A stretch of 64,000 nt of DNA from Plasmodiophora brassicae (Eukaryota), in assembly GCA_036867785.1 (NCBI GenBank), contig CP145410.1, forward strand, positions 682,001 through 746,000, written 5' to 3'. The notes under the pieces were generated by a model. It was given only the letters and a program-made list of their open reading frames with translations. It was not told where the DNA came from and searched no databases. A program made the translations under genes and the position numbers. Of the stretch, positions 25,046 to 41,520 are shown in pieces. Each line of letters starts with the position of its first letter. Position 1 is the first letter of the stretch.

Positions 25046-26519
25046 ATGGAGACCGTCTTCATCGTATGGACGGCTGTGCTGATTGTGCACCTCCCAGTGC
25101 TGGCGCTGCCGATGACGTACTGGCATTACTCGGACAGGGACCCGATCCGCTGCCAAGGGCCCACGACACTCCTGTACCAGAGCGTACTGACCGTGCTGTT
25201 CACATCAGATCAGATCGTGCGCTGCCTGGTATCCAGAATGGTGCCCGTGGCTCTCGAGGTCCCCTTCGGGCAGTCGCTCCTCGCCCTAATGGTCCTCAAC
25301 ATGCTCTTCTACGTCGTGCGTCTGTACGTGGCGTTCTCGAAGACGGCACAGCAGATCGCAGCCCATGAAACGATGACGTCGGCGACCTCGCCGTCGATGG
25401 TCGCCATGAAACGTCATACACAGGTATTGAATCTCCTGATCGACCGTAGGACCGCCGTGCTGTACACCTTGGGGCACCTGCTCCTCCAGAACTCCCTGCA
25501 GGTCACGTACATGCTTCTGTATCCCGGCCTGGCATGGTCATCGCTGTACGTAGCGGAGCAGGCCCGACCCGCCCAGTTCGACACGCTCCTGAATATCGGC
25601 CTTGTGCTGGACATGTTCCCCGTCATTGCGTTCATTGTCCTCGCCTGGAAACTTGTGCGTCCCTCCACCGTTGTACAATCAGCGTTGCATAGTTGACGTG
25701 ATCCATAGCGAGTGGTCGTCGACGCGTTCGGAATCAAATCCATGTCGGACGAATAGGAACGTTGTCGGCGCGCGTGCCCGTCTGACGAGACTGAATGGGT
25801 ACAGGTTGCGTAAGATCGGATGGTGCTCGCTGTTCGCGTTCACAGTCTACATCCTGACAACGCTCGTCCTGAACGCTGTCAGCGATCTGTACATTCCATA
25901 CATGATCAGCGTCTTCAACCTCGACATGTTCATGTATTTCGCGTTCATCCAGCCGGTATGTCGCGCGAGACGCTCGCCACCACATGGAAAGGCGCAGGAC
26001 GGTGTCCGGCCCAGTGAGCTCGCGCGAGGCACGGAAGAGTTTATCGAGTTCCTTCGTTCCCCGCCCTGCTTGGCCGCGTTCGAAAAGCACCTCGAGGCGG
26101 AATTCTGCATCGAATCGCTGCTGTTCTGGGCGGACGTCGAAGCGTTCCGTTCACTGCCACAGGCCGACATGGTGGTTGCCAGTGAAGTGATCTTCGACAA
26201 ATATCTTCGGGTGGATGCACCGTTCGGGGTCAACCTGCCAAGCCGGTGGCTGCACGAATTTCGAGACGTGATGTTCAACAACGGGAAGGTCGACGCGGAA
26301 GGCGCGCTGTCGGCCACCATGTTCGACGGTGCTGCCCAACAGATTGTGGAGCTCATGTACAGCAACTCGCTGGGCCGGTTCAAGGAGGCGCACTCTACCA
26401 TCTGGGGCGATTTCCAGCACGCTCGTCATGAGCGGAACGTCCTCGCGAAGCTCAACACGAACGTCACAGGCGCTAGCAGGCGCTCCGTGTCATCCACGAC
26501 GGAATCCTCTTCGACTTAA
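25046..26519 (+). CDS. 7TM-RGS protein, paralogue 1 (3 exons)
   Basis: Seven hydrophobic helices, a 35-nt exon at 25709-25743 (RVVVDAFGIKSM) and the RGS box FEKHLEAEFCIESLLFW...IFDKYLRVDAPFGVNL...MYSNSLGRF. Confidence 0.9.
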
Positions 26520-26730
26520 ACAGAACACACACTCTAGCCGATTCTGGGATAGACGCCCCAAGGCATGGTACCTTTGGATTGACGTGCTGAAAGGGCGGTA
26601 GCGTATGCAGGTGTAGATATTTGACGATGTACCACTCGGTCGATTGTGTTCGTGGACGCCCTTGTACCCCTGCCGTTGAGCACCGTCGGTGGGTGCCTCT
26701 CTTCAACGACGCCTCAGTGTCGTGGACGCC

Positions 26731-28232
26731 ATGGAGGTGATCTACGCCGTGTGGACCGTCGTACTCGTCCTACACCTTCCGATGCTGGCGCTACCGTTCA
26801 TGTACAGCGCTTGCTCGGACAGGGACCCGATTCGCTGCCAGGGGCCAGCCATGCTTCTGTACCAGAACGTGTTGACCGTCCTGTTCATATTCGAGCAGAT
26901 CCTGCGTTGCCTGCTCTCACGCGTGCTACCTGTGGCTGTTGAAGTCCTTCTCGGACAGTCGCTTCTCGCGTTGATGGTCGTAAACATGCTGTTCTACGTC
27001 GTGCGCCTGTATGTGGCCTTCTCCAAGACAGCAGAGCAGACTGCAGCGCATGACACGATAACGAGCATGACTTCGTCGCAGCTCCTGGCGATCAAACGTC
27101 GGATCCATCTCTTGAAGCTCCTGGTTGACCCGAAGACGGCCCGCATGTACACTGCCGGGCACCTGTTCCTTCAGATATTCCTTCAGGTCCTCTACCTGAT
27201 ACGGAACCCGGGTCTGGCCTGGACGACGCTGCACGAGGCGGAAACGGCTCGTGCCGATGACTTCAACACGTTCCTGAACATCGCAATCGTACTGGACCTG
27301 ATTCCCCTCATTGCGTTTATTGTTCTCGCCTGGAAGCTGGTAAGTTGCCCCCCGAGCCTGATGTCATGGCCCTCCTGAGCCATTGACATACCTGTTGTCG
27401 TGCAGCGCGTTGTGGTCGACGCTTTCGGAATCAAATCCATGTCAGCTAAATGCGCCATCGTGTGCAATGTGACCGACGTTTGTTGCACAGGTTGCGGAAG
27501 ACGGGGTGGTCGTCGCTGTTCGGCTTCATCGTCTATCTCCTGACGAAGGCCCCTCTGAACGCCATCAGCGACCTGTACATCCCTTACATGATCAGCGTCC
27601 TCAACCTGGACGTCTTCATGTACCTGGCGTTCGTGCAGCCGATGGCGCGCGCGAGGCGCTCGAGACCGTTCGGGAAGACGATCGACGGGACGGTGTCGGC
27701 GGATGCCGTCCGGGTCACCGATGAATTCGTCGAGTTCCTTCGTACGCCGCCCTGCTTCGCTGAGTTTAATAAGCACCTCGAGAAGGAGTTCTGCATCGAG
27801 TCGTTGCTGTTCTGGGCCGACGTCGAGGCGTTCCGCGTGATGGCCAGAGCGGATATGGCGGCGGCCAGCGAGGCCATCTTCGACAAGTACCTGCGGGTGG
27901 ATGCGCCCTTCGAGGTCAACCTGTCCAGCAAGTGGTTGCGTGAATTTCGAGATGTGCTGTTCGTCGACGGCAAAGTCGACGTGGAACGGACGCTGTCGGC
28001 GACCATGTTCGATGGCGCCGCCAACCAGATGCTGACCCTGATGCGGGTCAACTCGCTGCAGCGATTCAAGGACGCGCACCCGGCCATCTGGAGCGACTTC
28101 CAGTACGCTCGCCGCGAGCGCAACGTCCTCGACAAGCTCAACAGTCACGTCACCACGAACAACAAGAGGACGTCGTCGATCAGTACGGCCGTAACGGCCG
28201 CCGGCATTCATGTCAATCAGACTCTGGCTTGA
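26731..28232 (+). CDS. 7TM-RGS protein, paralogue 2 (3 exons)
   Basis: Same architecture as paralogue 1; micro-exon 27406-27440; RGS box EFCIESLLFW...APFEVNLSS...MRVNSLQRF. Confidence 0.9.
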
Positions 28233-28520
28233 ATGGTTCCTGGCGCGCGACGTCCAGTTGTACGTAGCCTTGGCCAGCGCCTACGTAACTGACCGATACG
28301 GGCCCACAGGAATGTCAATGACTAAAACCTTGTGTGCCTGGACGCTATCGGCAGCAGTGTTACGAAAGGCCTGTTTAGGCAGATTACCACCCACACAGTG
28401 CACAATGGGATCGAATGGCGTACGATCGTGACCAGTTCAGCAAGTGGGCGCTAGCGTACCGTTCGCGATCAAGGGCGCCCTTGGACCCCTTATGGTCGGG
28501 GAACAACGTTGCCCGACGCC

Positions 28521-30010
28521 ATGGAGATGCTCTACGTCGTCTGGACGGCGGTGTTGGTCGTGCACCTCCCGTTGCTAGCGCTGCCGTGGATGTACAGGCA
28601 TTACTCGGACAGGGACCCCATTCGCTGCCAGGGGCCCACGACGCTGCTGTTCCAGAACGTGGCAACGGTGGTGCTGACGTTCGAGCAGATCCTGCGTGCC
28701 CTGCTCTCCAGAGTGCTGCCTGTGGCTGTCGAGGTGCTCTTGTCGGAGACGATCCTCGCGGTACTGGTCACCCATTTCCTGTTCTACGTCGTGCGTCTCT
28801 ATGCGGCCTTCTCGAAGACGGCAGAGCAGATCGCGATGCATGAAACGATGGCGACGGTGGCCCCCTCGCAGCTGTCGACAATGAGCCGTCGCATCCGATT
28901 CCTGAAGATCCTGAACAGCCCGTCCACCGCACGCCTGTACATCATCGCCCATGTCACCGTACAGAACGTCCTTCAGATCGTATACATGCACCAGCACGCC
29001 GGCCTGGCCTGGCTGACGCTCCATGAGGCGGAAACGACTCGTACCGACGAGTTCGGCACGCTGGCGAACATCGCCGTTTTCCTGGACCTGATCCCCGTCA
29101 TCGCGTTCACCGTCCTCGCCTGGAAGATGGTACGGTCCACGCCTTGCTGCGATTCGGTTCCACGTCAGATCAGCTGAACCTCGGGACAGCGCGTTGTCGT
29201 CGATGCGTTCGGAATCAAACCAATGTCGGGGGGCGATGCCGCCGTTCGCACCATGGGCGGGACAGTGCTGAACCTGTGTCGTACAGGTTGCGGAAGGTGG
29301 GATGGTGTACGCTGGTCGCAATCACCGTCTTCATCTCGACGAAGGACGCCCTGAACGCCGCCAGCGACCTCTACATCCCCTACATGGTCACCGTCAGCGC
29401 CCTGGACCTGTGCCTATATTTCCTGTTCATTCAGCCGGTGCTCCTGGCGCGGCGATCGCCGCCGCGACCCGGGTCGTCTAGCGACAACGTCATCCAGGTC
29501 GAGTCGGCTGGAGGCGGCGTCGACGAGTTTATCGAGTTCCTGCGTACACCGTCCTGCTTTGCTGCGTTCAAGCGACATCTCGAGACGGAATTCAGCATCG
29601 AGTCACTGCTGTTCTGGGCCGACGTCGACGCGTTCCGTTCGCTGCCGAAGGCGCAGATGACGGCCGCCAGTGAGGCCATCTTCGACAAATACCTTCGGGT
29701 CGATGCCCCCTTCGAGATCAACCTGCCGAGCAAGTCGTTGCGCCAGTTCCGAGACGTGCTGTTCAACAAGGGCAAGGTCGATGTGGGCAGGGCGCTGTCG
29801 GACACCATGTTCGATGCGGCTGCCCGCGAGATGCTGAGCCTGATGCGAACCGGGTCGCTGCCCCGGTTCCAGGAGACGAACCCGAACATTTGGAGCGATT
29901 TCCAGTACGCGATTCGCGAGCGCCACATCCTCAGCAAGCTGAACGCGCACGACACCACCGCCAGCCGCTGGTCGTCCTCCACAGCGGATGCATCCGTCAT
30001 ACACTTTTAA
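28521..30010 (+). CDS. 7TM-RGS protein, paralogue 3 (3 exons)
   Basis: Same architecture; micro-exon 29190-29224; RGS box EFSIESLLFW...APFEINLPS...MRTGSLPRF. Confidence 0.9.
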
Positions 30011-30167: not shown

Positions 30168-31663
30168 CTAGAATTCTCCAGCTGTGAACACCTTTGCATA
30201 ATACGGGTTGATGTACGGGTTGTGCAATTCGTAGATCGTGCAGCAGGCGGCAGCGGCCGGGTCACCGCTCGACGACAGGCTGCCCAGGTAGATTTCGTTG
30301 CCTGGGAAAGCGTTCCCGTCCCAGGCGTACGTGCTGAACAGCAGCACGTCCTCGTCGTCAACGTCGCACAGAGGGGACGCCGGATCTCGTTCCGAGAATT
30401 GAATCTGGACAGCGTTCCCGTTCGGCGCCTGAAACGTGCCGCCGTTGCTTACGTCGCCGCACGTCGCCGGTGATAACTTGAACCAGGCGAAATCGACGAT
30501 GGCGACGTTCGGATAAGCGACTCGCTGGAGAACATCGGCGACGGCGTCAACGAACCATCTGGTCTGCCAGCCATGGACCTTCCAGACACCCAGGCCCAAT
30601 CCGACCAGGTGTACATAGGCGCGCTTTCCTGCCGACAGCGCCCGATCGTTCGCGTCGGCGAACGCCGTCTCCAACGTGATCGTGATTCGCTTCTTGAAGA
30701 TGTCGGCATCGAAGAAGTTGGGCCCGAGACGGCTGAAGCGCTCCGATCCAGCCTCGAACGCGTGGCGAGCCTCCTCGTGCGTCGGGAACGAAGGCGTTCC
30801 GTAGAACCACGCCCAGATGGCTCGCAGGCCTTCATCGTACTTAGGCTTGCCCTTTGGGCGCCGCACGACGATGAACTGCGATTCCATGCGATCTGGGTGG
30901 TGGAAGCGGCACCCACCTGGAACAAGTCGTGTCAGTTCTGGGAACGAGGTGCGGGGGTTCGGTGATGACGCACAGAGGCCGATGACAACGCCATGTGAGA
31001 TGTACGAGCACGATGGCCCGCGCTTGCCTTCATTGTACCGGCCGCCGCTGTTGATGAATGTCGTCGGTGACGACACGCCGATCATCGCGCTGATCGCCAT
31101 CTCGTCGTATGACAGGTACGACGCCATTTGAATCGACGACTGCTTCTCTTCTGCCGTCCCGACTAACTTCCTGTCGTCGTTGTTAGCTGGCGTTCGTCCC
31201 GACCGTCATGGCGCGCCTCCTACCAGTCGGATCCCTTGGGGCGTATCTCGGTCCGAAGAAGCGTTCTGTCAGACGGACCTAGAAACGACAATGGGCGCTT
31301 GCAGATCAGCCGTGCAATGAATTCCGGCCGGGTCATGTTCCGGTAAATGTCCTGTTCCACCGCGGTTCCATGCAGGCGTTTGTACTCCAGGAACCGGTCG
31401 ATGAATTCCAGGACGCGTGCATGAACGACTACGCGCGTCGCGGCCGCATGCTGATCATGCGGCTCATCGGGCAGGTTCACCATCAGGTTGTCCTGCACCG
31501 GGCTCGGATGCAATTCGTGGAAACGTCTCGCATTGGACAGAAGCAGGTCGAGAGACGGCGACGATTCCGGGTCTGGCGGAGGCAGATCGGGCAACGCGTC
31601 TGGCTCCATGGGCTCGCGTCGTCGTCGTATCTTCATGGCATCGGCCGTTTCGGAGACTGACAT
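30168..31663 (-). CDS. DUF4804/MavL-like macrodomain protein (putative ADP-ribosylhydrolase), multi-exon
   Basis: Motifs FLEYKRLHGTAVEQDIY..MTRPEFIARLICKRPLSF, YLSYDEMAISAMIGVSSPTTFINSGGRYN, YVHLVGLGLGVW and YAWDGNAFPGNEIYLGSLSSSGDPAAA..IYELHNPYINP match my recollection of DUF4804. Confidence 0.75.
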
Positions 31664-31682
31664 TTGCACGAGACGTACGCCC

Positions 31683-34425
31683 TTATTGCGATCTGTCGTT
31701 CAGAGCCACTGGGCTCCAAGGGCGAGACCTCAACCGCGCGAATTCCTGTTTGCCAAATTTAGAAGAGCGATGGTTCTTCGAAGCCGAGCGGGCGGCACAG
31801 CTAGCGCCTACCTGTTGACCAGTGACGAGAAGCTGGACGAGCTGCTTGTGGCGGTTGTACTCGTCGACACGGGCGCGGTGGCCGACGTCGAACGCGGCCA
31901 TGGCTTGCTGGCGCTGGATCTCCATCTGGGCATCCAGCTCACGAGACGTCTGCAGCCGTGCCCGAGACGACCCAGGTGCGATCGCCCACTGACGCCCGTT
32001 GCGGATGAACTCGTGGACCGTCATCGCATTGAACACCTTCGTGTGCCGGCGTCGATGGAACGCCCTGGCAGACTTTGGCGGGATCGGCGGGAGTGATGCC
32101 CTGTTCGGCAGGGCGTCGTTGTCGTCGTTGTCGATGCGAAGTTTGCCGAGGTCCACACTGATCGAGCTTCTGGAAATGCGCCTGATGTACTTAGTCGTGT
32201 CGTCCGCGTCGGCCCCGTTTCGCAGTCGCCTCGAAAATGACAGCAATCGCAGGCGAGGCGTATGCAATTCGTCAGAGCACGCCGATGAGGAGTCGAACGA
32301 CAACACCCGATGTCGAAGATGTCGGCGACCGCAGTCGATGAACGCTTCAGCCGACATAGCCGTTGCCAGCATCGCCATCCATGTCTTCTGGATCGTTTCC
32401 CGACGCTGTGCGCTTGTGAACGGCATCTCCTGGAGCCCTTTGTTCCTCTGAACAGCCATCATCCGTCAATGAAACAGCCTGAAAGGCATTGGAAGGCGGC
32501 CGACCTGAATCCTTTCTCTGCGGATCTTTGCTAGTCGGGTGAGAAACTCGGTCCAGCGTTGAGGATCCGCCTTGATCTCCTCGATGCGATCGTGGAGGTG
32601 TCGTTTCAGTGTCTGTGGGGCGCCAAGCACCCCGCGCAGGCCGTCATCGTCGTTGTGGAGCATCTGCGCCCGCAACATCGATAAACAGGTCACTTCGGCG
32701 CTCACGTTCACGACCGTGACCAGCAGCGACTTGCACGTGGCGAAAGCGGTTAGGTCCACCTTGACGAACGTCCGCGATGATGGGGACGTTCTCCAGGTTG
32801 CCAATTCCGTTGTTGTTGGCCACTGGCGCCTGTCGGGCGTCCTGCTCATGCATGGCGCGATAAGGAGGCGGGCGGCACCTTGACGACAGTTCAGCGAGAA
32901 GCGCGCGGCACTGGGGCGCTTATCTCCAATCGGCATCTGAATCAGGACGGCGCCGTCGGGCGCGATGATGACACGGACACGATCGGTCATGACCTGGATG
33001 GGCAAGTCACCACCGCCGACTCGGGCGGCCATATGGAACAGGCCATCGGAGACCTGACGCATCAGGCCGTTCCACTGCGACTGTTGTGAACGTCGATCGG
33101 GCCACACGATATCCCCCTGGCAGTGCGCCGTTCGACACGCCTGGAACGTTCCCATCTCGTCGGCGTTCCTCTGACGGGTCAGCGTTCCCAGTTCAGACTG
33201 CAGAGATACAGGCAGCGGTCGTATGCCGCTTGGCACTGCTTTCAGCGACTCATTGTCATCTCGTTTGCCCTCCTCTAGATCTCCCCATTCGCCTTCGGCA
33301 TCGCTTTCGTCAGTGACCCTAAATTCGTATTCTTCCTCATCGTCCGGGTCGGGGTTCGTTGCCGCCAGTAAAGTGTCATCGGTGACGGTATCGGGTTGTG
33401 CCGGCGCACCGGTCTGATCCTGGCTTGGAGTTGAAGACAGTGCTGCGGCCATTGAGGGAGCGCGCGTCAATTCTGATCGGGGCGTCGATCCGCTCGCAAT
33501 GCTGGCGTAACGCAACGTGTCGCGGCGCAGGACCTTATGGCAGATGTCGCTAAGTAACTCGTTGGACATCGACAGGAGGTCGTTGACGGTAGCATCGTCC
33601 ACCACGGCCGCATCGATCGTCGACGTCGCCTTCATCTCGAACGTTCCCTGCAGGTACGAACATACGATCTCGCCGATATCCTTGATATCCGGTTCAGCGA
33701 TCGCCCGGTCCTGTCACTCATTTCAGGGCAAGGAACGGTTGACCAGACATTCTGCATCTGTCTTCATTATGGCCCAGTTCGCTGTCGTCTCATTCGCCAC
33801 GCGCGAAACGGTTCCTGAGGGTAGTCCTTCTTCAGGCAGCATTTCGTGAACCCCAGTCGCTCGTAAAGGCGAATGGCATTGGCGTTGCCGTCGAGGACAT
33901 GCAGACGAACTTCCTGACAGCCGACCCGTTCATTGCAGGCGTCAACAACGTGCTGTATCAGGCGTGTGCCGATGCCCCGCGTGCGATACCGCTTCTGGAC
34001 GGCGACAAAGAACAGGTCAAGGTAATCGGCCTTCGCCCGGCGTCGCCCGCCGCCAGTTCTCGCGCATCCGCACCGATGGTGGACGAAGATGACGAACCCT
34101 ATCGCCGATCGCGACTCGACGTCTTCGGCAACAGCGCACTCCCAGCTTTTGAACGCCTGCCGCTCTGGATCCTGCCAGGGCCGTCACGAAACATATTGCC
34201 CTGCGACATCGCCGCCATACCAATCGTTTCGCGAGCAATTCCCGCCCATACGGCTCGACCGACGACCCGCACAGGTCCGCCGTCATCTCCTCGTCTGCCC
34301 TTCCCCGTCAGCGCATGACACGTCCGGAGGAGCCGTGGCCCGCACGTACCCAGGGCGACGAGCGCATTCAGATCGTCCGGGGAGAACGCGCGCAGCGCAA
34401 CAACGGCCTTCGCAATCACATCCAT
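31683..34425 (-). CDS. Hypothetical multi-exon protein (5' structure uncertain)
   Basis: Long ORFs 31683-32462 and 32466-33635 can be joined by a GT-AG intron near 32448-32504. A possible first exon is MDVIAKAVVAL at 34425. No family recognised. Confidence 0.4.
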
Positions 34426-34669
34426 CAGTGACCTGTCGCTGCAACGCGCCGCACCATTGTCAAATGCAGTGGCGCGTACGTTGTAACACTGTGCGCGAAT
34501 GATCGGCGATTGCAGTCAACAGTCGCGACTCGGTACTGTACAGGTACAGATATAGTACGTACTATAGACTATTAACCAGGGGGTGGCGCACGGACGGGTG
34601 ACGGTGGGCGCTCTGTGAAGAACAGCGGTCGTCGCGAACCGGGTTGGTCTGGGCGCGCGACGATCGACC

Positions 34670-37018
34670 ATGGCCGACGAGTCGCTGGTGGCAGCCGGCA
34701 GCGATCGGGCGCAGAAGCTGGCGCAGCATTTGGAGAATCGCCCGACGCCCGAGACGCTCGTCGAGCACAACATTCTCAAGTGTACGTCATGGCGACGACC
34801 GACCGTCGAATGATGCGTGTGACTTTTCATCGTGGGGTAGCGTTTCGTGCCGACCCCAGCCTGCACGAGGTCATGCAGGCGCTCATCAGGACGAGACGGG
34901 AGAGCGAGCTGGGGACGCTGCTGAAACGACGTCGGTCCTTGCAGGACCTGATCGACAAGAACATTATCGTGGCAGGGCCGCCCGGTTCGCCCAACATGCG
35001 AAACGCCAGACAGAAGCTGTTGAAACACCTTCAGCGCAGCCAGCTGAGCAACTTCCTCGTCAACCGCCCATCGCTTGTCGAGGTCGCCAAGCTGAACGTT
35101 CTGGAAGGTCGTCCCCCCTCCCCCCTCACGGGCCGCCAGCAATGCACCTCCTGACGATCGGTGTACAGATACGTTGATTTGGACGCGGGTTCAGCAGTCG
35201 GGCACGATACCATCGCCGAGGAACTGTGGCATGCTGACTGCCATCGACGATAATATCTACCTGACAGGCGGGTTCTGTGCTGAGCACCGTGCCGGGATGT
35301 CGTCAGCGGAGCTGTTATCCTACAATCTGCCCACCGAGACATGGTCACGACCATTATGTGCAGGTAAGGGACGCGCGTCGTGCATCACAGGACCTTCTCT
35401 GAGGTGCAGATCCAGGGTCGATTCCCTGCAGTCGGTTTGCACATTCGAGTTCTGTAGTGGGCAAACAGCTCGTCGTGTTTGGAGGATGCACCGGTGATGG
35501 CCGATGGCTGAACGACGTCCATGTTCTGGATACCGAATTCGAGCAGCCGTTCGTCTCCAAATCCGCAGTATGTCCTTGTTCTCTGCCGTATGGCTCCGTT
35601 GAGAGAGGCCAACGCTGGCATAGGCTGCGAAGCATACGTGGAAGCAACTGTCACCACAGACCATGTTCCTGTGGTATGCTCCAGAGACGTCAGGCGCCAA
35701 GCCATGTGCTAGAGCGGCGCATACGGCAACGACAATTGGGACTCAGATCGTGGTCTTTGGCGGCAACGATGGCGTCCGACTGTAACCGTGTATCTCGTCT
35801 TGCAGTGGATATGACCCTCATTGTCCATCCAGGTTTAACGATATCCACATTCTGGAAGTGGAGACGATGGGCTGGTCGAAGCCGAAAGTTCGAGGGACAC
35901 CGCCGACGCCTAGAGCAGGACACGCCGCCGCTCTTGTGGACGGTCACCTGTTATTCGTGTTCGGAGGAGGATCTGCCCACGGCCCTACCAATTCCATACA
36001 TGTCCTCGATCTGGAGACGTTAACTTGGACAGACCCGCAAGTGTCTGGCACGCCCCCGAGCCCGCGTCTGGGGCACAGCATGCACGTAAGCCCGGTGGAG
36101 GTTGTAATGAACCGCACCTCTCCGTTCTGATGTTTACGTCAGGTCGTTCTGGGGCCGCGTCCTCAACTGTTGGTTTTCGGTGGCGGCACGGTTGACAAGC
36201 TCTACGACGACCTGCATGTGTTTGACTGTGCAACCGGTGTCTGGTCAAGACCCAGGGACACAGGAAGCGGTTGGTAACGCAGTCGACACGCTGGCATCGG
36301 GTCTGACAGAATGATTCTTATATCAGTGCCTGCCGCGAGAACGGGGCATGCGAGTTGCCTGTTAAGGGACCCTGTATCGAACCGCGAGTCGCTGTATTTC
36401 TTTGGCGGCGCGGGCAACCAAGGTCAACTGTTCAACGATTTCTACCTGTTAGACTGCGCCTTCTTCAATGAGCAAAGGTAAGGGTTCTCCGGAAGGCGGA
36501 AGTATGTCTTCCTCATGCGTTAACAGCCTAAGCACTCCGTCTCGCACGACGCCTGGATATGATGCTGAAGCCAAACAGGTTGTATACGAGGACAGCGAAG
36601 ACGTACCAGCAGAAAATGCCAGCCTTGCAGTGGAATGGAACGCACGGGTACGGCCGTACTACGCCTCTGGAAACGCTCATACCGAATGTACAGTGCAGGT
36701 GGAAGATACGAGAAGCAGAATAGAGGACCTGCTGGCAGGTGTTAAAAGGAGAATGCATCTTGTCCAAGACCAGGCTGTTGCTCGAGAGCGTCAAATGGCC
36801 GAAGCCATGCAGGTACGTGAGACCGTTACGGTCCTCCTCCAGTTCGTAACTGAGCAGAACGACAGAGATCGTTGGACGATCTCCGCGCTGAGGTCGATGC
36901 AATCTCAGCATGCGTCAGCAATGAGCTCAATGGCTTACTGCACAACGTGTCCCCGGCGGAAGACGATGGGAAGGAATCCGGAGAGGATGGCCCTACCGAC
37001 AATAACACCTACTGCTAG
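34670..37018 (+). CDS. Triple RPEL-repeat + Kelch beta-propeller + coiled-coil protein, multi-exon
   Basis: RPEL-like motifs LAQHLENRPTPETLVEHNILK, LGTLLKRRRSLQDLIDKNII and LSNFLVNRPSLVEVAKLNVL. Kelch blades PSPR..IYLTGG, LVVFGG..WLNDVHVLDT, PTPRAGHAA..LFVFGG and PSPRLGHSM. The C-terminal coil ends NNTYC*. Confidence 0.82.
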
Positions 37019-37950: not shown

Positions 37951-40900
37951 TCAATTCGTATCCATAGACTCGATTCTAGGCTGGTCTGCGTCAGCGTTGC
38001 TGACGATGCTGCGTGTCGAAGGCTCTCGTGTCAGAGGAAGCGCGACGGCTTCGGACATAGACGAGCCGATTGAGGACGCGTGTCTCAGCTTATCGCCGAT
38101 TCGTGGCGTTGCAGGGCTGGCACTACTAATCGAAGCTGACCGCGATTTCGACTCAATCCTGTGCGGGACGACCTGTACTTCGGTCTGCCCAGCCCTGCGG
38201 TCGCCAAGCAGGAAGACGAACTTCTTGAGCGGTTCGGATAAAGTCGCATCGAACATCTCGTCCAGGCGGGACCGCGCGTAATAGTCGCGCATGGACCGAT
38301 TGATGATCGTCATAGCTTTCTGAAGGTTCCGTCGGCGAATCTGCGTCCGGGCCCTGGTAATCCACCCGACGGCGTAGGCTCGCGCTATCAGGAACAGGCG
38401 CAGCATCGCGATCTTGCTGCGAATCGCAAACCCAAGGTTGTTCAGGTGGATGGCGTCGATCGGGTTCTGGTTGAAGAACGTGATCCTAGCACGTCGTCCT
38501 GCGTTGTCATCAGCAACAATGTCGTGTGCGTACATCAGGTTTGTGTCGCGTACCTCTCCAAATCTTTTGAAGCTTAGTCGCCTCTTGGTGCAGGATCTTG
38601 AGACGCTCCGGTCGGTTGCCGCCAAGCTTGACGTAGATGTAGTTGTGGCCGATTGCCATCGAGTTCGAGCGTTCGATAGCCTCCTGCCGTTTCTTCTGGT
38701 ACGTTTCCGTCTTCATGAACCGCCGAATCCGTCGTTGAAGGCGGATCATCTGCATGGTGAACACGTGGTATGGGACGCGCTTGCGCAGCACTGCGCAATC
38801 TCTCGTTGATATCGGGCACGTAGGCCGTAAGGAAAGCAGTGCACATACCAATGTTCGTGATGCGACGCGTATGATTGCCCCTGAACCGACGCTGGATAAA
38901 GAGCACGATCTGCATCGTGTTGCTTCGCATCTGCTGCTTGTCGCGCTGGATAACGGCCTGCCGGACGCGCATCAGGAACACGCGCACACCTCGCTGGATG
39001 ATGATCGCCGCCTGCATCATGCGGGTTTCCTCAGGCGGGAATGTGGAGAACGCGATCGGTGGTTCGCATTCGATGCTGTCGGTGAACTCGTCTTCGGTTG
39101 GGAACACGATTGCGTCCGGGCCACTCTCCAGGGCGCCGTCTCCCTGCGTGATCACATCACGAACCGACGTCTGCAGGACGGGGATCGGCACAAACTCGTC
39201 GCCGCTGCCGGGTACGCTCAATGTGTCTGCCTCGTTCGACATGATCCGAACACGTTCCACAGGCGTCGTCTCGGGGACCGGGAATGCGAACGGCAATTGG
39301 CCAAAGTTCACGCTGACTTGCGGTGGAGCACGTTTCTCACTGCTGGCCTGCGCGTCGTGGTCCATCTCGGCCGCTGGCCTACTGCTTTGGACCGTCGACG
39401 CCGTCCTCTGCCTGATGCCGGCGGTTGTCAGGCCTTTGATTGCAATAGCGGGCAGGACGGGCGACGACGACAGCAACTGGTACTGCTGCTCGACGCTGGC
39501 GGCCGGGAACACACGACTGCCATGGCCAAACAGGACGGCCACCTCGACACCGTTCTTGAACAACGTCAGCGACCCGTTGAACGTGTCAATGACAACGCCG
39601 ACGATATCGCCAGGTCGGTACCCGCTAGCATAGATCATGCTCTGCTGGTTGAAGTAGGCGCGGCCGTCAGATGCGACCCCCATGCTGAACGCGTCGGCGC
39701 CGAGGTACTCGGGCCGGGACAGCGGCGTCTCCGTCGTGACGCCCACCATCCAGTCGAAATGCGACCCGATGGCCACTGCCTCGAAGTAGAATCGACCATG
39801 GACCTGGGCCCGCTGCTCCATGTCCTGCACGAGCTCGATTCCCCGAGCGCGCAACACGATGTCGTCGTCGATCTCGTTCAGGTCGGCGCCCGCGTACCCG
39901 GTCATGTGCAAGGCCAGACTGAGCTCTTCGATCGAGTTCGTCAACGGCGCATCGGGGCCGTTCTCGCGCGCGATCAGTATATGCTCGTCGATGCACGAGT
40001 CTTGCACCATCGAAATTCGCCTGCTGAGCCGTCTGGCGTGATGTGGCGCCGCTGCCGAATCGAGGGACGTGACCGACGTTGCTCTCGAATGCGCCCTGGT
40101 GGACGGTGCGGTGCCGTCCAGCGCCGCTGCTGCCTTTCGACGCTCCGCTTCCTTCACCTTCTTCGCCTTCTCTGCCGACTTGACGTATTCGGTGTGGACC
40201 GCACGCAGGCACGACCAGATGGTCTTGACAATGTCGTCGCGCCCGGCGACCTTGGTGATGTCACGAAGCGAAGAGAGCATCATCTTCAAGTGGCGCCGCG
40301 CGTGATGATCAGGCAGGCGAGGGTACTGCGACACTGGGTTCGTTGACCGAATGACCGCCCAGCGCGGGTACTCGGACGGCGCATCCATGTGCATGGCCGT
40401 GTACCCTTCGTTGGCGACCGTCAGCAGCGGGTGGCAATCCTCGACGCTCAGCGTCGTCTTGTTGCGAATCGGTGTGTAGATCGACCCTGGCGTGAACGCG
40501 TTCATGTCGATATCGCGATACGACGCCATCTTGGTCAGGAACGTGCACCGCTGTTGGTTGAAGATGCGCTCGCAGGATAGGGCCAGCAGGTCGCCCGTAT
40601 GCTTCAGCAGGCTGGGCAGACGCCCGCACAGCAGTCGTGAGTCGCGGCGCTGCTTGTCGAAGTATTTGAAGATGTGGCCGTGCAACATGGCGCGATCCTT
40701 GCGGATGTCGCTGAGCGTGTTGTACTCCAGGAGCATACGCCGCTCCTGCGTCAGCGACATCATCAGCTTGCGCTCGTTGATGACGAACACGCTGGCGATC
40801 GCCTCGACAGTCAACAGCTGCTGTTCGTGTTTGCGCTCGATTTCGACCAGGGCATCCTCGATCGACCCCATCTCGTCGTTGTCATTGCTGACGGTCTGAC

Positions 40901-41180
40901 TGACCATATTCGACACGAGCGAGTTGACCTCCTCGCACCATCGTTTGGTCAGGTCCCGCTCAGCGCCGATCACATCATCCTGTAAACGCTTCAACGTGGA
41001 CAGGTTCGCGCCTCCCGACTTCCTCAGCAACTCCTGCCAGGGCTGGTCGTTTGCCTTGGCACCGATCTTCAGCGTCACTGGGCCCGACGCCTGTGCATGC
41101 GGCACCGTTTGCGCACTCCCCAACATCGATGCACACGACGAATCAGCAATGACACACTTCAAGGTACAGTACGATCGCAT
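37951..41180 (-). CDS. SPRY-domain protein with multiple IQ motifs (start may lie near 41226)
   Basis: SPRY core FYFEAVAIG..WMVGV..YLGADAFSMG..YRPGDIVGVVIDTFNGSLTLFKNG. IQ-like motifs AAIIIQRGVRVFLMR, FIQRRFRGNHTRR, LQRRIRRFMK and ATKLQKIWR|GRRAR. Confidence 0.78.
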
Positions 41181-41520
41181 GGCCGTATATTGATGATTTC
41201 ATACGGTTACTGCACAGACTCGTCATGGCGTCCGGCACGCTGGCAACGACAGCGATCCGGCGTGCGAATGCGTGTTCCACCTCGTGAGGTCCACGGTGGT
41301 GCCGGCGTGCGGCTGGAGTCCGACGGACGAGGAGGGGCCGAACGAGTGTAACACCCTGAGAGGTGTCCCGAGGCCCAGTCAATTCGGATATTGATTCATT
41401 TGTCTGGGGGGTCGGCGCGGCGCGCGTCTGCCATCGTCACAGGCAACACGGCACAGAGCCGCCGTGGGCCGCGACGTCACCACACCCGTCGAGGATCAGG
41501 CGACAGACGATTACCGCGTG

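Follow-up and report, generated by a model that had tools for sequence, protein, structure and literature searches.

Gene structure and transcript

The DNA analysed here (called the window) is a stretch of 64,000 nucleotides from the clubroot pathogen Plasmodiophora brassicae (contig CP145410.1 of GenBank assembly GCA_036867785.1, positions 682,001 to 746,000 of the forward strand), and positions are counted from its first nucleotide. It contains, at 34670..37018 on the + strand, a gene of 11 exons (the RPEL-Kelch gene) whose product combines three N-terminal RPEL motifs with a Kelch propeller and a long C-terminal helix. RPEL-based sensing of actin monomers (G-actin) has been described for three animal families, MRTF, Phactr and ArhGAP12 (PMC2583105, PMC7599070), and the present protein is a candidate for a sensor of this kind with a different output domain.

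The start codon is the ATG at 34670, the earliest in frame downstream of a stop codon ending at 34618, and the stop codon is a TAG (37016-37018). The coding sequence (CDS) is distributed over exons 1 to 6 (34670-34781, 34841-35107, 35169-35363, 35416-35567, 35624-35781 and 35833-36085) and exons 7 to 11 (36143-36269, 36327-36477, 36527-36647, 36699-36812 and 36866-37018), separated by ten introns of 49-61 nt, all of the form GT..AG. The spliced CDS of 1803 nt gives a translation identical, letter for letter, to a protein of 600 residues (P0001), which is named 'Kelch motif [Plasmodiophora brassicae]' at NCBI and is uncharacterised in UniRef. The limits proposed in a preliminary description of this DNA are therefore exactly those of the CDS. 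A database search with exon 2 led to one protein at 99 % identity, P0001. The G+C content of the window is 50-62 % and its reading frames are split, as expected from the short introns of a eukaryote.

The stretch is present in 20 of 24 listed public sequencing runs (the share of sampled words is 0.62-0.63 in 19 and 1.00 in one), and four runs were aligned to the window. The kind of each run (RNA or DNA) is a guess, none being recorded as RNA, and the claim of a transcript is based on the spliced form of the contigs. Two runs from separate studies (X1 and X5) each provided a single contig, of 1940 and 2181 nt, running from 34587 and 34500, respectively, to about 37072. In both contigs all ten introns have been removed at the annotated joints, and a single processed molecule carries the RPEL exons (1-2) as well as the Kelch exons (3-8). 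Run X13 shows the same joints in pieces, while run X15 provides a collinear unspliced form of the gene.

The two spliced contigs, which join exons 1 to 11, bear out the earlier proposal that the RPEL and Kelch parts belong to a single transcript. That these parts are instead different genes, joined by an artefact of the gene model, has a practically negligible probability: we found no support for it other than one X13 contig of 246 nt (34623-34868) which keeps intron 1, and it must contend not only with the contigs from two studies but also with related sequences. The transcriptome open reading frames (ORFs) of three relatives (P0002 from Leptophrys vorax, P0008 and P0057) contain both RPEL and Kelch, and a metagenome contig (L003) carries a single uninterrupted ORF (69-983) with three RPELs and, behind them, the first Kelch blades. 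At another metagenome locus (L059) the exons of the homologous gene are all on one strand. The contigs of other runs are spliced at intron 1, and the 246-nt contig may represent intron retention or DNA carry-over.

The RPEL array and the propeller

The RPEL motif (Pfam PF02755) has the core RPxxxEL with an invariant arginine, and its Pfam gathering cutoff is 23 bits. Motif 1 (residues 14-37, encoded by exon 1 at 34709..34780, + strand) passes this cutoff, residues 16-37 scoring 31 bits alone and 27.6 bits in the whole protein. Exon 2 encodes motif 2 (residues 58-81, 34900..34971, + strand), whose core is RR and not RP, and motif 3 (residues 103-126, 35035..35106, + strand). The invariant arginines (R24, R68 and R113, the last followed by P114) are separated by 44 and 45 residues. 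Three alignments were used to examine conservation: A1, with ten homologues; A2, with the N-termini of eight family members; and A3, with the five closest homologues. The invariant columns in A1 and A2 (L17, L21, R24 and L30 in motif 1, R68 and L74 in motif 2, L106, L110, R113 and P114 in motif 3) occupy equivalent positions in the three blocks. Comparison of the motif blocks with each other using hhalign places them in register with probabilities of 96.8, 97.8 and 96.3 %, the first two of these being the values for motifs 2 and 3 against motif 1.

A profile derived from A2 was compared with all sequences in the Protein Data Bank (PDB). There were 16 matches at E<=10, and the top 11 without exception are RPEL chains, either of Phactr1 or of MAL/MKL1 (MRTF-A). 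The best are Phactr1 4b1z (9.7e-16), MAL 3tpm (1.4e-15) and MAL 2yje (1.9e-15); the MAL/MKL1 entries 3tpm, 2yje, 3tpq and 2yjf fall between 1.4e-15 and 1e-14 and are followed by single-RPEL peptides. ArhGAP12 (6gvc) aligns weakly to motif 3 (E 0.3), and the rest are LINE-1 ORF1p (0.13-0.17) and a designed filament (3). Motif 1 is thus identified by Pfam, and motifs 2 and 3 by the match of the family profile to solved RPEL domains together with the in-register repeats, in agreement with the three motifs recognised in the preliminary description.

The likeness to MAL includes the layout of the array. Profile positions 3-80 align with MAL 38-115 (RPEL2, spacer and RPEL3) with zero gaps, so that the Arg-to-Arg spacing is the same as in MAL. 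Spacer 1 (residues 39-57, FRADPSLHEVMQALIRTRR, 34843..34899, + strand), placed within a modelled helix at 43-66, aligns with MAL spacer 2 (AEPSLQAKQLKLKRAR). The resemblance of ADPSLHEVMQALIRTRR to the MAL spacer follows the pattern DPSLxxxxxxLxRxR. The expression 'MRTF-style helical spacers' had been applied to this protein on the basis of a spacer (..SLHEVMQALIRTRRESEL) which aligns with MAL spacer 2, and it is supported by this resemblance. As judged from sequence, the array and the RPEL domains with which MRTF-A and Phactr1 bind actin are homologous.

In MAL RPEL2, helix alpha-1 is described as contacting actin through L118, K121 and I122, the R-loop through the invariant R125 together with P126, and helix alpha-2 or the residues after it through R128, L131, I136 and L137 (PMC2583105). 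All three motifs of P0001 have an arginine at position 0 and hydrophobic residues at -7, -3, +6, +11 and +12 (L, L, L, I, L in motif 1; L, L, L, I, I in motif 2; L, L, V, V, L in motif 3). The corresponding contact residues are L17, L21, R24, P25, L30, I35 and L36 in motif 1 and L61, L65, R68, L74, I79 and I80 in motif 2. A regular expression for the six contact positions (the arginine and the five hydrophobic residues) matches P0001 at R24, R68 and R113 only. In 20000 shuffles of residues 1-126, three matches were never obtained, two were obtained twice and one 479 times. There are six further matches in about 128000 residues of the six-frame translation of the window.

The same expression finds one to four matches in each of the 12 other family members (13 were tested, including P0001) and three matches in 104 proteins (61546 residues) taken as Kelch-only controls. 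Two of these three, P0019 and P0089, are on inspection RPEL-Kelch proteins themselves. Their RPEL motifs are missed by the precomputed Pfam labels, and counts of RPEL-Kelch proteins based on such labels are therefore underestimates.

The propeller follows the array directly. It occupies residues 128-468 (exons 3-8, 35171..36466, + strand) and is detected by Pfam, AlphaFold2 and Foldseek: PF24681 scores 297 bits on the whole protein, and the Kelch_2, Kelch_3, Kelch_4 and Kelch_6 models each find six repeats. The AlphaFold2 model, built from a 10-row alignment (mean predicted local distance difference test score, pLDDT, of 74.8), shows a propeller at about 128-465 with pLDDT mostly above 90, and the earlier estimate of about six blades was accurate. 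In the N-terminal region it repeats three times, at low confidence, the succession of a long helix, a four-residue loop and a short helix (5-22/27-32, 43-66/71-76 and 88-111/116-121).

In this model the last RPEL3 contact, L125, lies two residues ahead of the first propeller strand (128-133). D127, T128 and W131 are invariant in A3, and W131 in all ten sequences of A1. The distance from the RPEL3 arginine to this tryptophan is 18 residues in eight family rows read with a regular expression and 16 in P0037; inspection by eye gives 18 for both P0001 and P0011 and 20 for P0007. The expression has no match in P0089, P0240, P0249 and P0273, and in the last three of these the Kelch profile begins close after the last or nearest RPEL arginine. 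The alignments indicate that this tight junction is conserved.

The joint between the two domains is also the site of an intron. Intron 2 (35108..35168, + strand), defined by the spliced contigs and the CDS, is in phase 1 and interrupts the codon of D127 (G|AT). The homologue at L059 has a phase-1 intron at the same aspartate (G|AC) and also shares intron 1 (T|CG, serine). The shared position and phase imply that the domain boundary is an old exon boundary, which fits assembly of the gene by exon shuffling. Within L059 3690-4260 there is one additional intron, between RPEL2 and spacer 2, compared with P. brassicae.

Beyond the propeller, residues 470-499 are disordered in the model and residues 500-577 (exons 9-11, 36609..36946 including introns 9 and 10, + strand) form a single helix of 78 residues with a pLDDT of about 75-80. 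This had been described as a coiled coil. The long helix is present in the model, but the coiled coil itself is at most possible: the 3.5-residue signal is insignificant (it is reached by 901 of 5000 shuffles) and the best register has hydrophobic residues at no more than 9 of 23 a/d positions. The helix is amphipathic, its 3.6-residue periodicity being reached by 15 of 5000 shuffles and a 7-residue periodicity by 57 of 5000. A two-copy prediction for residues 495-585 scored 0.01 against a mark of 0.32, with the supplied alignment unused, and is evidence neither way. The helix matches no Pfam family.

For the whole protein, Pfam reports 13 families, all of which are Kelch-type, RPEL or weak chance matches, with no BTB, BACK or SAP domain among them. 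P0001 contains no hydrophobic run of nine or more residues and no stretch resembling a signal peptide or a transmembrane segment, and on this basis is predicted to be cytosolic. The idea of a secreted effector acting on host actin was considered and rejected because no such hydrophobic run exists. For clubroot biology the protein is an ordinary candidate for cytosolic housekeeping or signalling, and nothing hints at an effector role.

Related proteins

The RPEL-Kelch architecture is not unique to P. brassicae. We have counted 16 RPEL-Kelch clusters (including P0273, P0019 and P0089), and their named sources are P. brassicae, Leptophrys vorax and 'Cercozoa sp. M6MM', all of them Rhizaria. A search with the whole protein gave 669 matches, and six of the best 120 carry both RPEL and Kelch labels. 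Among the 80 metagenome loci kept from a scan with A3, four (L001, L003, L059 and L078) match from before query residue 30, while a scan of viral contigs gave 116 pattern matches and no relatives.

RPEL arrays of this type are far more widespread than the fusion. An exhaustive search of cluster representatives with the A2 profile gave 1804 matches at E<=1e-3, of which 526 reach 1e-10 and 42 reach 1e-30. Pfam was run on 145 of the best 150, the other five being known family members. Kelch fusions were found in 3 of the 44 longer proteins (P0223, P0240 and P0249) and in none of the 101 shorter ones, giving 8 RPEL-Kelch proteins among the 150. The remainder are mostly RPEL-only, some with 10-19 matched stretches, and there are single fusions of RPEL with EF-hand/EH, RCC1, p25-alpha, cofilin/ADF, FKBP, FYVE and an AMPK carbohydrate-binding module. 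A further search with the A2 profile, restricted to longer proteins and limited in reach by its word index, gave six matches, all of which are family members. By these comparisons of sequence, the RPEL-Kelch fusion is one example among numerous uncharacterised fusions of RPEL in protists.

Individual RPEL-array proteins (P0121-P0125, P0128, P0129, P0231, P0257 and P0259) reach 2423 residues, and P0121-P0125 have 10-19 stretches. Source names of such arrays include a foraminiferan (Nonionella stella), a stramenopile alga (Chrysoparadoxa australica), Colponema vietnamica and the holozoan Syssomonas multiformis.

A tree of the Kelch domain was constructed with 24 rows, those from P0004-P0069 being dropped if the match covered fewer than 250 profile positions or the length was outside 260-560 residues. 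Two RPEL-Kelch subclades have support of 97 and 99 in the Shimodaira-Hasegawa-like approximate likelihood ratio test (SH-aLRT) and form a polytomy together with a clade of Kelch-only proteins. The tree would allow the fusion to have arisen once, without demonstrating it.

The preliminary description knew of no characterised RPEL-Kelch protein, and a literature search, with most subscription journals outside its range and papers judged by title and the start of the abstract, likewise turned up none. It also gave nothing on RPEL proteins of Plasmodiophora, on non-metazoan RPELs or on any relevant protist RPEL. The papers listed for Plasmodiophora and Kelch mostly deal, by their titles, with the host plant, and one examined further is about a host gene. 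A listing of the architecture in InterPro is probable since a database record carries both Pfam labels. RPEL-Kelch is, in short, an annotated yet uncharacterised architecture within the RPEL class of G-actin-regulated proteins.

The closest parallel in the layout of the array is MRTF-A/MAL (MKL1; 2yje, 2yjf, 3tpq, 3tpm). Both proteins have three tandem RPELs at the N-terminus with the 44-residue spacing, the spacer resemblance, one RR motif and the actin-contact positions. The downstream regions of MRTF comprise a SAP domain and SRF-binding and transactivation regions. P0001, in contrast, has no SAP domain according to Pfam, its effector part is a Kelch propeller with a helix, and it comes from a rhizarian protist and not an animal. 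It is not an MRTF but a protein that resembles the MRTF sensor domain.

The family profile matches no PDB entry better than the C-terminal RPEL domain of Phactr1-4 (4b1z). In both Phactr and P0001 the last RPEL abuts or overlaps the part that binds or constitutes the effector. In Phactr this is a PP1-binding RVxF-phiphi-R-W string, a family feature which overlaps RPEL3, with the result that actin and PP1 are mutually exclusive (PMC7599070). P0001 differs in that its array is N-terminal, its neighbour is a folded propeller and there is no PP1-binding tail: a search of the whole protein with the expression [RK]x0-1[VI]x[FW] found no RVxF-type string.

In the ArhGAP12 family (6gvc) an RPEL stands beside a folded effector domain, as it does in P0001, but there is only one RPEL and the effector is a RhoGAP domain. 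ArhGAP12 is said, in work of Diring et al. from 2019, to be inhibited by G-actin.

The propeller itself has many relatives. The best Foldseek match is the Kelch domain of LZTR1 (9mf0_D, E 1.8e-25, template modelling (TM) score by target 0.86, with a range of 0.86-0.88 for LZTR1), followed by KLHDC3, KLHDC2, KLHDC10 and the Kelch domain of ciliary dynein heavy chains, at 22-25 % identity (TM score by target 0.73-0.84 for KLHDC2/3). These are generic partner-binding propellers. LZTR1 and KLHDC2/3/10 share with P0001 a six-bladed PF24681-type propeller without BTB, and themselves lack RPELs. The cullin-3 adaptors of the BTB-Kelch (KLHL) type differ, as P0001 has neither BTB nor BACK according to Pfam and has an RPEL array at its N-terminus.

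Plant Kelch proteins with a C-terminal helix (for example, rice GPA3) and the Rab9 effector with Kelch motifs also have a similar propeller and no RPEL. In the Atlas structural rows for plant clusters, the matched query residues extend to 552-556, past the propeller. The Atlas feature scores for the plant Kelch and Rab9-effector look-alikes are 0.81-0.83, below the threshold of 0.9, and these serve as leads only; the link to trafficking which they suggest, and which the preliminary description had raised, is weak. In Tea1 and Kel1 the propeller is followed by a dimerising coiled coil. In P0001, which may be compared with polarity/traffic proteins of the Tea1/Kel1-like and GPA3-like kinds, the helix (500-577) has a weak heptad signal and the tail has no family match. 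GPA3 is described as a kelch-repeat protein which takes part in post-Golgi traffic together with a Rab5 GEF (PMC4588877).

Possible control by G-actin

We consider that the best overall explanation of this architecture is an RPEL array which senses G-actin and controls the adjoining propeller (a probability of roughly 0.6). In the characterised families each RPEL binds one G-actin, and occupancy tracks the level of free monomer (PMC2583105, PMC7599070). The conserved contact positions make it probable that the array of P0001 also binds G-actin. The N-terminal 126 residues form an MRTF-type RPEL domain, its motifs connected by helical spacers, which would take up one actin monomer per RPEL, each held in the cleft that separates subdomains 1 and 3 of actin. 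RPEL3 leads directly into the first strand of the propeller, a type of protein-binding module, with a disordered linker and the long helix behind it. At high levels of free G-actin the array would be loaded, and the bulky actin on RPEL3 would hinder the binding or location of the adjoining propeller, or of the whole protein. As actin polymerises, the array would be released and the propeller freed.

The preliminary description had G-actin gating the propeller, and Phactr offers an analogy that makes this plausible: there, the overlap of RPEL3 with the PP1-binding string makes G-actin a competitor of PP1. Less confidence nevertheless attaches to this gating step, and to the identity of the propeller partner, than to actin binding. 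Given actin binding, we would suggest tentatively, at somewhat less than even odds, that actin on RPEL3 limits access to the propeller or alters the location of the protein.

Several observations weigh against this explanation. Exon 2, with motifs 2 and 3, has no Pfam RPEL match, so that Pfam passes only one motif in three. Searched alone against the PDB, exon 2 finds MAL first but with an E value of 0.05, with the unrelated 3b85 at 0.059. Despite this, the three motifs are classed as RPELs on the profile and repeat evidence given above. Motif 1 has a proline at +3, equivalent to P172 of MAL RPEL3, which has been proposed as a cause of a roughly ten-fold weaker binding of actin (PMC2583105), and motif 2 has no proline at +1, a residue found there in none of the eight members of A2. 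The confidence of the N-terminal part of the model is low (pLDDT of about 50-70); RPEL peptides are described as folding on actin only (PMC2583105).

Some of these points can be turned into an alternative, in which the motifs are helices descended from RPELs that have lost the binding of conventional actin and either have a different partner, such as an actin-related protein, or act simply as a flexible arm. The two motifs below the Pfam threshold and the non-consensus residues at +1 and +3 would agree with this, as would the report that ARP5 binds the N-terminus of myocardin (PMC9900090). We nonetheless consider it quite unlikely: retention of the arginine and five hydrophobic contacts in three motifs and throughout the family is hard to explain without an actin surface, and RPEL1 of MAL, which is likewise RR according to the PDB chain sequences, is a solved actin binder (2v51). 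If actin is bound, the array might be a recruiter or buffer and not a sensor. The Kelch-helix body would set the site, and the array would hold at least three monomers and feed or restrain local assembly in the manner of tandem WH2 proteins. The proteins with 10-19 similar stretches (P0121-P0125) look more like actin handling than signalling, as do fusions of RPEL arrays with further actin modules, for example cofilin/ADF (P0129), and helix alpha-1 of the RPEL occupies the same cleft as WH2 (PMC2583105). However, the characterised RPEL proteins named in PMC7599070 are all regulated by G-actin and not the reverse, and a mere tether would not need the RPEL3-propeller junction to be tight and free of indels, which makes such a role unlikely in our view.

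G-actin might also control localisation and not the propeller, basic residues in the RPEL domain acting as an import signal masked by actin, as in MRTF-A. RTRR (residues 54-57) aligns with KRAR of MAL spacer 2, and there is a KRRR (66-69) in RPEL2; the MAL residues aligned with RTRR belong to the import signal. The family profile also matches 3tpm ('MAL'), the MAL-importin complex. The basic clusters are, however, poorly conserved in A2 (SAQRET/SNRET in P0007 and RTVQRD/KTRVT in P0014) and nothing points to a nuclear role of the propeller. This possibility therefore appears very unlikely.

An MRTF-like sensor layout, with both its repeat period and its spacer, is found here in a rhizarian plant pathogen on another kind of output domain. 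The protein belongs to a small unstudied protist family and may couple the state of actin to another cell process. Should actin binding hold, it would provide a simple non-animal test case for the readout of actin at the level of the monomer and for the generality of steric gating by the last RPEL. A bolder interpretation, which must be regarded as doubtful at present, is that the RPEL effectors under G-actin regulation include a fourth class, the RPEL-Kelch proteins, with a pre-metazoan origin: a complete MRTF-type sensor predating animals, with three RPELs, a period of 44 residues and spacers that bind actin, would have been wired by exon shuffling onto a substrate-binding propeller in Rhizaria and other protists, and the level of free monomer would turn this Kelch adaptor on and off through steric occlusion at RPEL3. 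If true, eukaryotes in general would use RPEL arrays for control by G-actin, in agreement with the fusions in which the array is joined to cofilin, EF-hand/EH, RCC1, FYVE and p25-alpha. Arrays of the P0001 type extend over hundreds to thousands of sequence clusters, with varied fusion partners. Together with their fusions they are a largely unexplored set of putative G-actin-binding proteins.

The genes surrounding the RPEL-Kelch gene (encoding GNAT, SPRY, RGS and MavL-like proteins) give no clue to its function. A GNAT acetyltransferase ORF (PF00583, E 2.2e-17; 33770-34183, - strand) is arranged head-to-head with it, at about 400 bp from the 5' end of the spliced contig (34587). Just downstream is an open frame of 874 residues with a SPRY domain (PF00622, E 1.3e-10; 38577-41198, - strand). 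On the other side, three tandem ORF pieces (25593-30007, + strand) each carry an RGS domain (PF00615; E 1.3e-12, 1.6e-13 and 2.1e-15) and look like a local triplication of regulator-of-G-protein-signalling genes. Two adjacent ORF pieces (30171-31699, - strand) match 'ADP-ribosylhydrolase MavL-like' (PF16062, 232 and 50 bits), a macrodomain family named for a Legionella protein and here present in a protist genome.

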